From the NCBI GenBank assembly GCA_963740355.1, contig CAVUDW010000002.1:1600001-1664000 (forward strand): DNA of 64,000 nucleotides. Reading direction: 5' to 3'. The notes under the pieces were generated by a model. It was not told the DNA's origin and did no database searches. It saw nothing but the letters and a program-made list of their open reading frames with translations. Each line of letters opens with the position of its first letter. Position 1 is the first letter of the stretch. This document shows, one piece after another, positions 34,616 through 38,006 of this stretch. This stretch comes from an uncultured Gemmatimonadaceae bacterium. GTDB taxonomy: Bacteria > Gemmatimonadota > Gemmatimonadetes > Gemmatimonadales > Gemmatimonadaceae. Made by a program: the position numbers and the translations under genes.

Positions 34616-36652
34616 CTACAGCGGCATGACCGCACGCTCCGGCGCACTGATCTCGACCATCAGTAGCGCCATCTCGAGCGCAGACACCCGCCGTGGCGCA
34701 CTCGTTGCTGCCGCTACCACCACGCGCCGCGCATCGGCGACCCATCGAAGGTCGCCAGTCAGCTGGTGACGCCGCAGCAACGCAAAAACACGAGGAAGCG
34801 GATTTCTCGGGAGACGCGCAGCCAATGCCGATCGCCTGAATTGCTCGTCGCCATACATGTCGTACGCGGTGGCCCAGAGCCACACGTCGCCCGCGCGATT
34901 CTCGCGCAGGGCCTCGATTCGCGCGACCAGGTCATCCCGCACTGCGACGGTGCCGCTGACGGCAAGCGTCAATGCGACTCGCACGAGCGTCGCTTCTGTC
35001 GAGCGAACGGCGTCGTAGCGTGCGGCTGATGCGTGCAGCAGGTGGTCGAGACGTTGCTCTGCCCACGATGCCAGCTCCAGGATGTTTGATGCCCGCGACG
35101 CGTCGCCGTGGAGCAGCCGCGCGGCCGCGAGAAGCGCCACGGCCGCTTCGGGGCCGTCACGGAGCTTGTCTGCCGTCGTCATGAGGCGGGTGATGGCGAG
35201 TGTCTCTGCACGCACATCCGATCGCGCACGCGCAACCTGCACCGCAGTCGCAAGACTCCGCCAGCCCCGCTGTGCGCCAGCGATCAGGATGTCGGCAGCC
35301 GCCAGAAGCTCGGCGTCCTCGAGCGCCACAGCGGCGCGAAGCGCGAACCATGCCTGGGCGGCCGGATCAGTGTTTCGTGCCAGCGCGCGCACGTCAGCGA
35401 CGCTCTCGTCGAACGCACGTTGTGTTGCGGGTGGCCAGGGCGTACTCGTGTCCGTCGGCAGGACGGCCGACGAGAACGCCTCCGCCATCACCGAGACATC
35501 CAGGAATCGGTGCGCTGGCTCCTTGCTCAGTGCGCGTCTGAGAACGGCCTCGCCGGTTGGCCAAGCCGGGATCCCGCGCGCGGCGAAGGGCAGCATGGGC
35601 CGACAGACGATGTTCCTCAACAACTCATCGTGGATGGCGGGCGCGTTGATGGGAGGCAATCCCGTCAGCAACAGGTAGCCGAGCACTGCGATCGCGTACT
35701 GCTCCGATTTCGGCGTGGCTGCAGGAGGCAGTTCGCCAGCCAGCAATGCAGCGGCCATCTGCGGATCGTGGAACTGTGGAATGCCCGAACGCAGGGGATC
35801 GACCACGTCGTGTGCCGCAGTCGACCTCGCATTCCCGAAATCCAGCAGCACGACGCGACCATCGTCGCGCACGAGACAGTTGCCCGGATGGATGTCACCA
35901 TGCAGCACGCCCATGTGATGCAGTCGACCGTAGGCAGCGAACAGGTCGCTCACGATCTTCTGCAATCGGCGTGGGTCGCGCGCCGCACGTGCCTGTTGTG
36001 CTGCCGTGGCGATGGAGACGCCGTCACACCACTCCATGGCCACATACACCCGCCCATTCACCGATCCGTGATGCAGCAGACGCGGGCTGTCGTCGCCGCC
36101 GAGGCGGTCGAGCACACGCGCCTCGTGCGCCATCATGGCGATGATGCCGGGCCGATCATCGCGCGCGATCTTCAGCGCTACCGACACCGCGTCGGGACCG
36201 CGCGCCCGATAGACCTCCGAATCCTCGAGCGAGCGGATCAGCGCCTCGATCTCGAACCCGTCGAACTCCTGACCGGCAGCGAGGCTTGGCGCGGTGGCGT
36301 TCGCGTCAGGCGATCCGGCGGGCACGAGGATCCGTGTCTCGACGAGCGTCGCAATGGCATCGAACGCCAGCTCCAGCATTTCGTTGGGTTCCTGATCGTG
36401 CGCACGCGAAAATCGAAGGACGGCGTCAGTGATCAGACTGGGTGCGCGAAACTCACCGATCAGATCGGCGAGTGGACCCGGCACGAGCCGTGTCGTCACC
36501 CGAAAGCCCGGACGGGTGATGACGGCCTGCCCGACATCCACTGGGCCGATCCGCGTGCGCAGTCGACCCGATAGTTCCGATACCGCCAGAAACCTCGCAT
36601 CTGGCGGCAGGATGAAGCGTGTCGTGGCGACGTCTGGTGGCGCATTCGTCAT
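34616..36652 (-). CDS. RRE-like domain + Ser/Thr protein kinase + degenerate LanC-like helical domain
   Basis: Kinase motifs VALK, HEARVL, HGDIHPGN, LLDFG; PqqD-like N-terminus ending ATLVETRILVP; C-terminal FALLRRHQLTGDLRWVADARR resembles LanC helices; ATGA overlap with the upstream gene. Confidence 0.75.
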   Translation of the reverse strand: MTNAPPDVATTRFILPPDARFLAVSELSGRLRTRIGPVDVGQAVITRPGFRVTTRLVPGPLADLIGEFRAPSLITDAVLRFSRAHDQEPNEMLELAFDAIATLVETRILVPAGSPDANATAPSLAAGQEFDGFEIEALIRSLEDSEVYRARGPDAVSVALKIARDDRPGIIAMMAHEARVLDRLGGDDSPRLLHHGSVNGRVYVAMEWCDGVSIATAAQQARAARDPRRLQKIVSDLFAAYGRLHHMGVLHGDIHPGNCLVRDDGRVVLLDFGNARSTAAHDVVDPLRSGIPQFHDPQMAAALLAGELPPAATPKSEQYAIAVLGYLLLTGLPPINAPAIHDELLRNIVCRPMLPFAARGIPAWPTGEAVLRRALSKEPAHRFLDVSVMAEAFSSAVLPTDTSTPWPPATQRAFDESVADVRALARNTDPAAQAWFALRAAVALEDAELLAAADILIAGAQRGWRSLATAVQVARARSDVRAETLAITRLMTTADKLRDGPEAAVALLAAARLLHGDASRASNILELASWAEQRLDHLLHASAARYDAVRSTEATLVRVALTLAVSGTVAVRDDLVARIEALRENRAGDVWLWATAYDMYGDEQFRRSALAARLPRNPLPRVFALLRRHQLTGDLRWVADARRVVVAAATSAPRRVSALEMALLMVEISAPERAVMPL

Positions 36653-37407
36653 GCGAGACACCCCTCCACGAATGCGTCGGGGTTCGCGTGCCAACGCACC
36701 GGATCGACACCCATCGCGCGCATGTCGGCGAGCACGGCGTTGGCGACATTACCCAACGGTGATGCGCGGTGCGTGGTGAGGCTGGCCGCGAGGCGCTTCG
36801 TGATCCATGATCGCCAGCTGACAGGTGTTTCGCTGGCGGGTGGATCGACGCCAGCGGAGAGGAGCCCGTTGCCGGCCAGCCCGGTGGTGAAGGGCACGCC
36901 TTGCGCGGGGCATCCCAGCAGCACTCGATCGAGCTCACGTGCAACCGTGTCGAGGTGGTCGTGCCCATCGAAGTAGGCGACGAGTTTGTCTGGGCGCAGC
37001 AAGCCTTCGATGCCGCGTCCCACCTTGAACGATCGCACGTTGCTTCGTGCGAGCACGTCTACGATGCGCGGAAACGCCTCCGCGAGTGCCTCCGGCCTCG
37101 GACTGACGTAGAGCTTGCAGGCCGGCTCGAACTGTAGCTGCAGCGGTAGTCGCGCGAAGGAATACCAGCCAGCGAATGAGGTGGCTTCGTACTCTGCCTC
37201 GAGTCTACGTCGTGCGGCGCCGCCGACAGTCAGGCCGAGCACGGCCATCGGGTCGTCGTCAGGCCCGAAGTCGCGCTCAATGGCTGGACCGCGCGGCAAC
37301 GTGCCGAATCGGTACAGCCACTGGGCGACGACGCCTGAATCCATCGACGGCACGCTGGCTGCCATTCGAAGCGCAGCCAGCGACAGCTGCTCGATACGCT
37401 CAGGCAT
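36649..37407 (-). CDS. HopA1/LanY-like putative phosphoSer/Thr lyase
   Basis: CKLYVSP, SFKVG, RPDKLVAYF, VPFT..G, SWRSWI..RLA resemble the HopA1-type / lanthipeptide lyase motif order. Confidence 0.6.
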   Translation of the reverse strand: MPERIEQLSLAALRMAASVPSMDSGVVAQWLYRFGTLPRGPAIERDFGPDDDPMAVLGLTVGGAARRRLEAEYEATSFAGWYSFARLPLQLQFEPACKLYVSPRPEALAEAFPRIVDVLARSNVRSFKVGRGIEGLLRPDKLVAYFDGHDHLDTVARELDRVLLGCPAQGVPFTTGLAGNGLLSAGVDPPASETPVSWRSWITKRLAASLTTHRASPLGNVANAVLADMRAMGVDPVRWHANPDAFVEGCLA

Positions 37408-37427
37408 GCGGCATCTCGGTAAAGGCG

Positions 37428-38006
37428 TTAACCGAGACTCTTCAGTGCCCCTTCGAGCTGCGCGCGAACCGCGGCAACTTCAGCCCCACGCGGCGCCTGC
37501 GCCGCCGCCGCGCCGTCGACGAACTTGACCGTCTGCGCGAGCTGCTTCTGCAGGCGCGGCAGCTCGCTGACGCGATGCACCGCCAACCCGACATGCACGA
37601 TCGGCGTCAAAGTCGGTGGAATCGTCTCCAGTGAGGTGCCGCCGCATTCAGGGTCGGGGTATCCTACGGCGCCACCACCGAGGCCAGCGTAGGCCGCACT
37701 GGCGACGACTGCGGCGCCGATCTCGTGAATCGCTTCCCGGATCGCCGGGCTGCCGCCGCTTCCACCAGCGACGAATGCGCCGGCGATATCGTCGAACTTC
37801 TTTGCCTTGATCGCTTCCGCGATCGTGCCGCGTACCGCCTCGATGCGCGCCAGGTTCGCAAGCACACTTGCAATCGGCGATATCGGTGATGGTGGTGTGG
37901 GATCGTCGGGTCCTGGCATCCACGTACCGCCGCGACTGGCTGCGCCGATACTGACCACCAGATCCTTGATGAGAAAATCCTTTCGGGAAAAAGCTCTCGT
38001 CGCCAT
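37428..38006 (-). CDS. Hypothetical protein, candidate precursor/substrate of the adjacent kinase-lyase pair
   Basis: 192 aa, GGAG RBS; leader-like FLIKDLVVSI, two S/T-Pro cassettes, helical C-terminus; ends 20 nt before the lyase-like gene. Confidence 0.7.
   Translation of the reverse strand: MATRAFSRKDFLIKDLVVSIGAASRGGTWMPGPDDPTPPSPISPIASVLANLARIEAVRGTIAEAIKAKKFDDIAGAFVAGGSGGSPAIREAIHEIGAAVVASAAYAGLGGGAVGYPDPECGGTSLETIPPTLTPIVHVGLAVHRVSELPRLQKQLAQTVKFVDGAAAAQAPRGAEVAAVRAQLEGALKSLG

Follow-up and report, generated by a model that had tools for sequence, protein, structure and literature searches.

A question about the scope of enzymatic dehydration is raised by three adjacent genes, here called A, B and C, in a 64,000-nucleotide (nt) stretch of DNA (the window) from an uncultured Gemmatimonadaceae bacterium (assembly GCA_963740355.1, contig CAVUDW010000002.1, positions 1,600,001 to 1,664,000): do they encode a kinase and a separate lyase that act in turn on a protein? 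To our knowledge, the only known targets of dehydration by a kinase plus a lyase are short peptides of ribosomal origin (lanthipeptide classes III-V and thioamitides), and, without a dedicated kinase, such elimination is known for injected effectors that disable host kinases. The original prediction, made from the letters of the window, described a split lanthipeptide-like system in which a stand-alone HopA1-like lyase (B) and a kinase with RRE-like and LanC-like domains (C) modify a large substrate (A). Our analysis makes it reasonably probable that the cassette is a derived branch of a split lanthipeptide-synthetase family and that it would phosphorylate and then dehydrate A. The three genes are:

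37428..38006, minus strand: gene A, 192 amino acids (aa); conserved partner and presumed substrate, without known family.
36649..37407, minus strand: gene B, 252 aa; stand-alone HopA1/LanY-like presumed phospho-Ser/Thr lyase.
34616..36652, minus strand: gene C, 678 aa; multidomain kinase.

The open reading frame (ORF) list and the DNA of the window confirmed the predicted layout. All three genes are co-oriented on the minus strand; a 20-nt gap separates A from B (the TAA stop of A ends at 37428 and the ATG of B is at 37407), and an ATGA at 36649-36652 is common to the stop of B and the start of C. The ORFs of A and C span 37428-38066 and 34616-36694, and internal ATG codons at 38006 and 36652 give the proteins of 192 and 678 aa. 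The 192-aa start of A was preferred because GGAGA is found a few bases 5′ of its ATG and homologues start at the equivalent residue. The longer GTG/TTG starts of A and C disagree with the N-termini of homologues. The base composition of the cassette is that of its surroundings. A promoter/terminator scan revealed nothing exceeding shuffled sequences, and the window contains neither an Rfam match nor a tRNA gene according to the respective scans.

No Pfam, NCBIfam or PADLOC family was assigned to B, and a phage collection contained no match to it. Matches to GGDEF, ferritin and a designed repeat in searches of PDB sequences with B profiles were at chance level and were dismissed. The residues of interest lie in one segment:

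36970..37125, minus strand: B residues 95-146; core, predicted as strand-helix-strand-strand, that contains K98-L-Y100, F127-K128, R138-x-D140-K141 and Y145.

The motifs quoted in the original prediction (KLYVSP, FKVG and RPDKLVAYF) were all present in the translation, and residues K98, L99, Y100, K128, R138, D140, K141 and Y145 were identical in 33/33 sequences. The core residues were also kept in plasmid-borne and long homologues of B, except for Y145H in L017. A model of B was built with AlphaFold2 from the 33-sequence alignment (pLDDT 65, pTM 0.61; moderate) and compared with the PDB by Foldseek. Ranks 1 to 3 were chain B of LxmKY, the lexapeptide dehydratase (9dk1, 9dk3 and 9dk2; E 2e-3 to 1.8e-2, 18-19% identity over ~176 columns), and rank 4 was the HopA1 effector structure 4rsx (E 4.7e-2). 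Foldseek probabilities for these four were 1.00, 1.00, 0.99 and 0.87, and that of rank 5 was 0.09. The Pfam HopA1 model (PF17914) gave sub-threshold matches to two distant homologues of B, P0159 and P0160 (35-36% identity to B; E 0.013-0.014, 15.8 bits vs a cut-off of 22.7), and these fall exactly over the aligned motif region.

According to PMC9486802, the CaoY residues tested by mutation are R187, K219, R229 and Y236; R187, R229 and Y236 are the equivalents of SpvC K104, R148 and Y158, and K219 is the essential base, equivalent to SpvC K136. The spacing of K98/K128/R138/Y145 in B is 30/10/7, that of the four CaoY residues is 32/10/7, and the four B residues lie on the predicted strand-helix-strand-strand core. 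From this we infer that they correspond to the catalytic residues of CaoY. B has Lys at the position of CaoY R187, as do SpvC and LanKC, and Tyr100 where SpvC has His106. B is encoded next to a partner phosphotransferase in 23/24 genome loci (the 24th is at a contig edge) and in 3/3 plasmid loci; for HopA1 proteins, Eyles et al. 2021 give such pairing in 96%. These findings support the predicted identity of B as a stand-alone lyase of HopA1/LxmY type, at the level of a modelled fold.

Protein C was divided into three parts:

36284..36652, minus strand: C residues 1-123, conserved N-terminal domain (71% mean column identity, 19 sequences).
35438..36283, minus strand: C residues 124-405, Ser/Thr protein kinase domain (Pkinase E 1.7e-13).
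34616..35365, minus strand: C residues 430-678 and stop codon; helical tail with the character of a shortened, degenerate LanC-like domain.

The kinase motifs VALK, HEARVL, HGDIHPGN and DFG were present in the translation, and K161, E177, D253, N258 and D271-F-G were identical in 19/19 sequences. The best PDB sequence relatives of the kinase domain were StkP and PknB (positions 127-395). These results support a catalytically intact Ser/Thr kinase and the Hanks-like assignment of the original prediction; the sharp contrast drawn there between Hanks and APH kinases proved softer, as Pfam matches to ABC1 and APH also exceeded their cut-offs. The APH match is short (residues 232-311 only, 39 bits), whereas the Pkinase and PknB/StkP alignments extend over ~270 residues. 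The catalytic loop HGDIHPGN has the form HGDxxxxN, which explains the extra ABC1/APH matches and the 'AarF/UbiB' names of relatives. Other family models matched only the kinase part of C, far below their NCBIfam cut-offs: MAD6 (70.5 vs 460 bits), class IV LanL as second-best NCBIfam match (E 1.6e-19, 69.7 vs 650 bits) and LanKC (46 vs 575 bits). The best PADLOC match, PD-T4-6 (E 4.6e-29), was likewise limited to the generic kinase domain. The N-terminal domain gave only weak matches among PDB sequences, to a FAT domain and TniQ (E>=0.013).

Relatives on plasmids clarified the origin of the remainder of C. A tblastn search with B of 72,556 plasmid records gave only three matches (33-34% identity), in Bacillus paramycoides p1 (NZ_CP152428), Paenibacillus peoriae (NZ_CP011513) and a Cupriavidus oxalaticus megaplasmid (NZ_CP038636). 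Matches to C at E<=1e-20 occurred in exactly these three records, with 32-37% identity to the N-terminal and kinase domains of C; A had no match in the collection. The B-like and kinase-LanC genes are adjacent, overlapping in two of the three. The kinase-LanC proteins (800-830 aa) consist of ~130 N-terminal residues without family, a Pkinase domain and a full-length LANC_like domain (E 1e-29, 3e-33 and 6e-25). In the two Bacillota records they are annotated as 'lanthionine synthetase LanC family protein', and the B-like proteins as 'hypothetical protein'. The latter have 383-408 aa and no Pfam family (the Cupriavidus one has a chance-level NdhM match, E 0.006). An N-terminal extension of ~150 aa is conserved in the distant B-like proteins (383-512 aa) and absent from B of the window; homology of this extension to the N-terminal domain of C was unsupported (hhalign probability 6.4%).

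L025 5599-6825, L026 5626-6777 and L027 5602-6786: plasmid B-like genes; P0159 and P0160 are further long homologues.

Candidate precursor genes lie beside the plasmid enzymes. In a 595-aa protein of the Bacillus cluster (L025 9394-11181), a 44-aa unit with C...V-T-P-L-T-P-L-I-S...C recurs 12.2 times; counted in units of 89 aa, there are 6.1 copies with 97% identity. A 250-aa protein at L026 4651-5403 contains 3.2 copies of a 71-aa unit, in which an amphipathic helix is accompanied by a strand-like F-R-T-V-D-L motif and by a segment rich in Cys. Both of these tandem multi-copy, Cys/Ser/Thr-rich proteins, annotated only as hypothetical, are probably multi-core lanthipeptide precursors. The 141-aa ORF of L027 is non-repetitive and has a Cys-rich middle and an L-P-L-F-K-E-E-L helix. 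S8 peptidases, or LanB with a 2-oxoglutarate (2OG) oxygenase, are encoded near the enzyme genes. Searches found no publication on these plasmid clusters. The Cupriavidus cluster (L027 1881-10149) encodes a full LanB dehydratase, the 141-aa Cys-rich ORF, the B-like protein and a 2OG-Fe(II) oxygenase, with a convergent kinase-LanC gene; it brings two different dehydration systems together, and the stretch is unannotated in the record copy used.

The LanC-like character of the C tail, proposed in the original prediction, was not detected by family models: Pfam LANC_like matched 0/19 members, NCBIfam LanC models matched 0/19, and PDB sequences gave 0 matches. It was upheld by homology to the plasmid proteins. 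BLASTP aligned the L025 protein with C residues 13-444, that is, the N-terminal domain plus the kinase (30% identity, E 1e-58), and residues 686-798 of its LANC_like domain with C residues 587-678 (26% identity, E 3e-5). When the three plasmid proteins were put into a multiple alignment with 7 of the 19 kinases of the cassette, the whole C tail lined up with the plasmid LanC domain, with deletions. The GIAHGW, WCNG and CCG(H/L)AG segments of the plasmid proteins met gaps or unrelated residues in all 7 cassette kinases. We take the CCG motif to be a zinc site formed by three cysteines, as it is in ProcM-type enzymes. Across the 19 sequences, the tail has no Cys or His that is invariant or nearly so. 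As read from these alignments, the tail is a shortened LanC remnant without catalytic motifs; the loss of the LanC Cys/His motifs means that it probably does not work as a cyclase. The ThurKC paper describes class III cyclase domains without zinc ligands and reports that the ThurKC cyclase domain is required for dehydration, even when supplied in trans. A retained scaffold role of the C tail is therefore plausible. The best explanation is that the cassette derives from a split lanthipeptide-synthetase family with a separate HopA1/LanY-like lyase and a second protein in which an N-terminal domain is combined with a Ser/Thr kinase and a domain of LanC type.

To sample the cassette in genomes, one genome of each species was scanned with a pattern built on the B alignment, and this gave 32 candidate stretches and 24 confirmed loci. 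All 24 are records of metagenome-assembled genomes (MAGs): Acidobacteriota (6), Chloroflexota (2), Opitutales, Nitrosomonas, Burkholderiales (2), Thiocapsa, Rhodanobacteraceae (2), Allosphingosinicella, Rhizobiaceae/Hoeflea (4), Rhodobacterales and Phenylobacterium (3). The cassette genomes span at least four phyla and include alpha-, beta- and gammaproteobacteria. In tblastn searches with the window proteins, A was directly upstream of B in the same orientation in 24/24 loci and C was directly downstream of B in 23/24, a count limited by contig ends (C is truncated in L009, and the L010 contig stops inside B). The A, B and C proteins of the loci were 48-82%, 51-73% and 45-64% identical to their window counterparts, respectively, and the closest match was the locus of a Chloroflexia MAG (L011). 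This arrangement is far beyond chance.

The surroundings of the cassette are not shared. None of six window flank proteins tested by tblastn matched in any of the 24 loci. When 245 ORFs of the loci and the window were clustered, no flank family was common to the loci beyond congeners (maximum 3 loci). Flank Pfam content was mostly metabolic and housekeeping genes in the 119 of 147 flank ORFs scanned; the 28 omitted were mostly from loci congeneric with one that was kept. No protease, transporter or cyclase gene was conserved in the flanks of the loci, nor was a second kinase-like gene, a cysteine decarboxylase gene or a short precursor gene. The locus is a self-contained, autonomous three-gene operon. 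Its copies in different phyla are highly identical yet lie among unrelated flanks, and this sequence comparison indicates that the operon spread horizontally. Genes of other kinds lie within 5 kb in a few loci (transposase plus TIR-domain, HEPN/Toprim and TfuA-like; L012 971-2338 and 4338-4850, L007 1095-2435, L016 1195-2700), with no consistent pattern. Some copies are broken across frames (A and C in L005, 5406-8746, each matched in several frames; C in L003, 6747-8769, and the end of A in L013, 1870-2435, with one break each), and these reflect either decay or assembly errors.

All three genes are under constraint. Non-synonymous divergence was well below synonymous divergence for each gene in 5/5 pairs (pN/pS 0.19-0.51). 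By the Nei-Gojobori method, dN increased from A (0.12-0.28) to B (0.21-0.45) to C (0.28-0.48) in the same five pairs, in which synonymous sites were near saturation. Existing annotation is sparse. B has relatives in 793 clusters at 90% identity (E<=1e-3), and the 120 listed of these were all 'hypothetical' or unnamed, none with a Pfam domain. C has 313 relatives, none with a more specific name than 'protein kinase' or 'AarF/UbiB family'. Homologues are also present in records from Lysobacter tyrosinilyticus and Nitrosomonas sp. A has 38 representatives at 50% clustering among 1.84 billion proteins.

A, the most constrained of the three proteins, has no Pfam, NCBIfam or PADLOC family. Its profile matched only coiled-coil-like segments in the PDB (E>=0.12), and protein atlas look-ups for A and for the C tail gave no usable match. 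Four segments stand out:

37947..37982, minus strand: A residues 9-20 (KDFLIKDLVVSI), N-terminal hydrophobic strand-like motif.
37866..37919, minus strand: A residues 30-47, Pro-rich site 1 (MPGPDDPTPPSPISPIAS), which contains S43-P44.
37593..37661, minus strand: A residues 116-138, Pro-rich site 2 (YPDPECGGTSLETIPPTLTPIVH), with C121, T124, S125, T128 and T134-P135.
37479..37568, minus strand: A residues 147-176, amphipathic LPxLKxQL helix; L149, L156 and P172 at least 90% conserved.

These are arranged as strand-like motif, Gly-rich linker, site 1, helices, second Gly-rich linker, site 2 and the C-terminal L-P-x-L-K-x-Q-L helix. Within residues 9-20, D15 was invariant and F11 and L16 were at least 90% conserved in 39 sequences; distant family members begin directly at this motif, which is a possible recognition element. 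Conservation at the two sites was assessed in 23 close and 22 distant members (L005, L013, P0137 and representatives of <160 aa were dropped as broken or partial). Position 43 was Ser or Thr in 23/23 close and 19/22 distant members, followed by an invariant P44. Position 134 was Ser or Thr in 23/23 and 22/22, respectively, and P119, P130 and P135 were invariant. T124, S125 and T128 were also among the most conserved hydroxyl residues. C121, the single Cys, was kept in 22/23 close and 18/22 distant members. The two halves of A align in register at the Pro-rich motifs, and in 14/39 members 0/200 shuffles reached the alignment score. The putative role of A as substrate of B and C, put forward in the original prediction, is supported mainly by strict synteny, by translational coupling and by analogy with the plasmid candidate precursor genes.

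A mechanism may be proposed from these features. C would bind A and phosphorylate Ser/Thr residues in the two exposed, Gly-flanked Pro-rich segments, the most likely targets being S43-P44 and T134-P135, with T124, S125 and T128 as further candidates. B would then β-eliminate the phosphate, giving dehydroalanine (Dha) or dehydrobutyrine (Dhb) in A. The C tail would most likely serve as a scaffold that organises the complex, and no enzyme-made thioether rings would be expected; the single Cys121 of A could add to a nearby dehydro residue. A modified protein that stays inside the cell is a likelier product than a secreted peptide, because the cassette contains no protease, exporter or cyclase and A is its most constrained gene. 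A more specific version is offered tentatively: A would be no peptide precursor but a folded, working cellular protein in which a lanthipeptide-type kinase, a lyase and a cyclase decayed to a scaffold install Dha/Dhb at two fixed (S/T)-Pro sites, and the plasmid relatives would be a new split class acting on tandem multi-core precursors. If so, the electrophilic residues could be a warhead, a one-way switch, a self-cleavage site or a Cys121 thioether staple.

Several points weigh against dehydration of A by C and B. For the lyase, the structural model was mediocre, its Foldseek TM-scores were low (0.36-0.41), and no E value was <=0.001 (2e-3 to 5e-2). Window B did not match the HopA1 profile PF17914 at E<=10; the gathering score was reached by 0/33 B members, with weak matches in 2/33 (best E 0.021), and 10/33 matched the unrelated Rng_hyd_C equally weakly (best E 0.0067). 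Searches of PDB sequences with B profiles did not find LxmY or HopA1. The correspondence with CaoY was drawn from spacing and predicted strands without a residue-level structural alignment, and Y145 is His in L017. For C, the N-terminal domain predicted to be RRE-like had no detectable sequence signature of this kind, as PqqD/RRE models matched 0/19 members in Pfam and 0/19 in NCBIfam. For A, the internal repeat was not significant in the window protein (29/200 shuffles reached the score), and similarity to the plasmid precursor candidates was weak (hidden Markov model E 2.7e-4, 0.17 and 0.53; hhalign probability 1.3-7.6%). In all three candidates hhalign picked the same A helix (about residues 141-176), the only such segment of A. 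The length of A and its uniform conservation are also unusual in a substrate of enzymes that act on peptides made by ribosomes and modified after translation (RiPPs).

A could instead be the long precursor of a secreted lanthipeptide or other RiPP, in which the Cys121 segment is dehydrated, cyclised to (methyl)lanthionine, cut out and exported by products of unlinked genes. The kinase-LanC relatives of C, found with Cys-rich candidate precursors and flanking S8 peptidases, would fit such a pathway, as would the conserved C121-G-G-T-S-x-E-T cluster of A and the S9 peptidase gene 2 kb away in the window. However, all LanC Cys/His motifs are lost from the C tail, and A has one Cys only, absent in 1/23 close and 4/22 distant members. 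No protease, transporter or cyclase is conserved beside the cassette, and the S9 gene occurs in none of the loci. Constraint is stronger along all of A than in the enzymes, whereas core peptides are variable. We therefore regard a secreted product as unlikely.

Phospho-signalling without elimination, with A or another target as the substrate of C and with B as a lyase-like adaptor that does not catalyse, appears quite improbable. It draws on the intact kinase of C, on the fold-level assignment of B from a moderate model and on the 2021 thioamitide paper, which left open a non-catalytic partner role for the HopA1-like TsaD. Against it, the B residues that match essential CaoY positions were invariant in 33/33 sequences and kept in relatives of 33-35% identity, whereas a pseudo-enzyme would be likely to lose them, and the plasmid relatives are found in clear lanthipeptide-type clusters without another lyase. 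An anti-phage defence or toxin-antitoxin-like cassette, with the kinase as effector and A and B as sensors or regulators, would be suggested by PD-T4-6 and MAD6 as best PADLOC and NCBIfam kinase matches, by the compact, autonomous cassette scattered across phyla, and by 2/24 loci with a TIR gene (plus a transposase gene) or a HEPN/Toprim gene nearby. We consider it very improbable: those matches are limited to the generic kinase domain, far below the NCBIfam cut-offs, neither A nor B has a PADLOC match, the phage collection has no match to B, and most annotated flanks are metabolic or housekeeping.

The proposed dehydration of A by C and B was compared with known systems. In class V lanthipeptide enzymes (LxmK-LxmY and CaoK-CaoY) and the thioamitide pair TsaC-TsaD, a separate HopA1-like lyase is likewise encoded beside a partner kinase, and the two-step logic, phosphorylation and then elimination, is the one proposed here. 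The best structural matches of B are LxmY chains, and its residue spacing resembles that of CaoY. However, LanK is a small APH-fold protein, whereas C is a 678-aa multidomain protein with a PknB/StkP-type kinase and a LanC-derived tail. B differs from LanY in scoring below the HopA1 Pfam cut-off and in having Lys at the position of CaoY Arg R187. LanX, LanD and a short Cys-rich precursor are missing beside the cassette, which has a 192-aa conserved candidate substrate instead.

When B and then C are read consecutively, the lyase-kinase-LanC order of the class III/IV enzymes LanKC and LanL is reproduced, but those are single polypeptides with an OspF-type lyase; here a HopA1-type lyase is encoded by a separate gene, C has an extra 123-aa N-terminal domain before the kinase, and its LanL and LanKC family-model scores are far below the cut-offs. 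Class III cyclase-type domains resemble the C tail in lacking metal ligands, although that of ThurKC has ~370 aa and the tail ~250 aa. The zinc ligands of class I/II/IV-type cyclases (Cys, Cys, His/Cys) are absent from the tail. The plasmid clusters contain true homologues of B and of the N-terminal and kinase domains of C, with a candidate substrate gene alongside; they differ in a full LANC_like domain with WCNG and CCG motifs, Cys-rich precursors and longer B-like proteins. OspF and SpvC are injected effectors that act on host MAP kinases, in contrast to B, a cytoplasmic operon partner. These phosphothreonine lyases share with B the proposed chemistry and a Lys-x-aromatic strand, a Lys strand and an Arg/Tyr strand. 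They have no detectable sequence similarity to B, which has Tyr100 in place of the SpvC acid His106. With the anti-phage kinase systems PD-T4-6 and MADS, the cassette shares only a generic kinase match.

The cassette resembles class V by its separate HopA1-type lyase, and class III/IV by the type of its kinase, the order of domains and the LanC-type tail, but belongs to neither. In agreement with the original prediction that its architecture matches no class, the literature searched, which did not extend to subscription-only papers, describes neither the three-gene cassette nor any pairing of a HopA1-like lyase with a kinase-LanC protein. Two supplementary data sheets of Eyles et al. 2021 did not list any of the accessions or organisms searched for. 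A review mentions 'class VI' LanKCb enzymes of streptococci.

Around the cassette, the window encodes two cupin-domain proteins, a member of the beta-lactamase family, an S9 peptidase and an extracytoplasmic function (ECF) sigma/FecR/TonB-type cluster. The cupin-domain genes, at 33855-34883 (minus strand) and 38249-39343 (plus strand), bracket the cassette. Both listed cupin ORFs are probably over-extended, since the cupin domains begin at residues 219 and 173; an ATG at 38599 is a better start for the second gene, and shortened starts leave intergenic regions of ~320 nt and ~590 nt on either side of the cassette. The S9 prolyl-oligopeptidase-family gene, with PD40 repeats (30432-32702, plus strand), lies 2 kb from that of the Pro-rich protein A. 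As a maturation protease it was rejected, because the gene is present in 0/24 related loci; it is probably unrelated. A family of intergenic repeats resembling repetitive extragenic palindromic (REP) elements, with the core AATCCGGTGACAG, had 21 matches with <=1 mismatch (0.10 expected), at 38413-38473, 30334-30487, 44807-44939, 51330-51447, 58810-58862 and 61328-61440. The repeats are always clustered, with copies on both strands, and the copy upstream of gene A forms a perfect 29-nt inverted repeat with a 3-nt loop. Two further ORFs of the window, at 42717-44777 (plus strand, 686 aa) and 22622-24007 (plus strand, 461 aa), had no Pfam family at E<=0.001.

What sets the cassette apart is a HopA1-type lyase combined with a PknB-like kinase that is fused to a LanC remnant, with no cyclase chemistry left and a 192-aa partner protein that is more conserved than its enzymes. 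The cassette is widespread, but its annotation does not go beyond 'hypothetical protein' or 'protein kinase / AarF-UbiB family'. If its chemistry is confirmed, enzymatic installation of dehydro amino acids would be extended from peptides to proteins, and the C tail would be a natural example of a cyclase turned pseudo-enzyme. The relatives on Bacillus/Paenibacillus plasmids, with their multi-core precursors, would then suggest a further split class of lanthipeptide synthetases.

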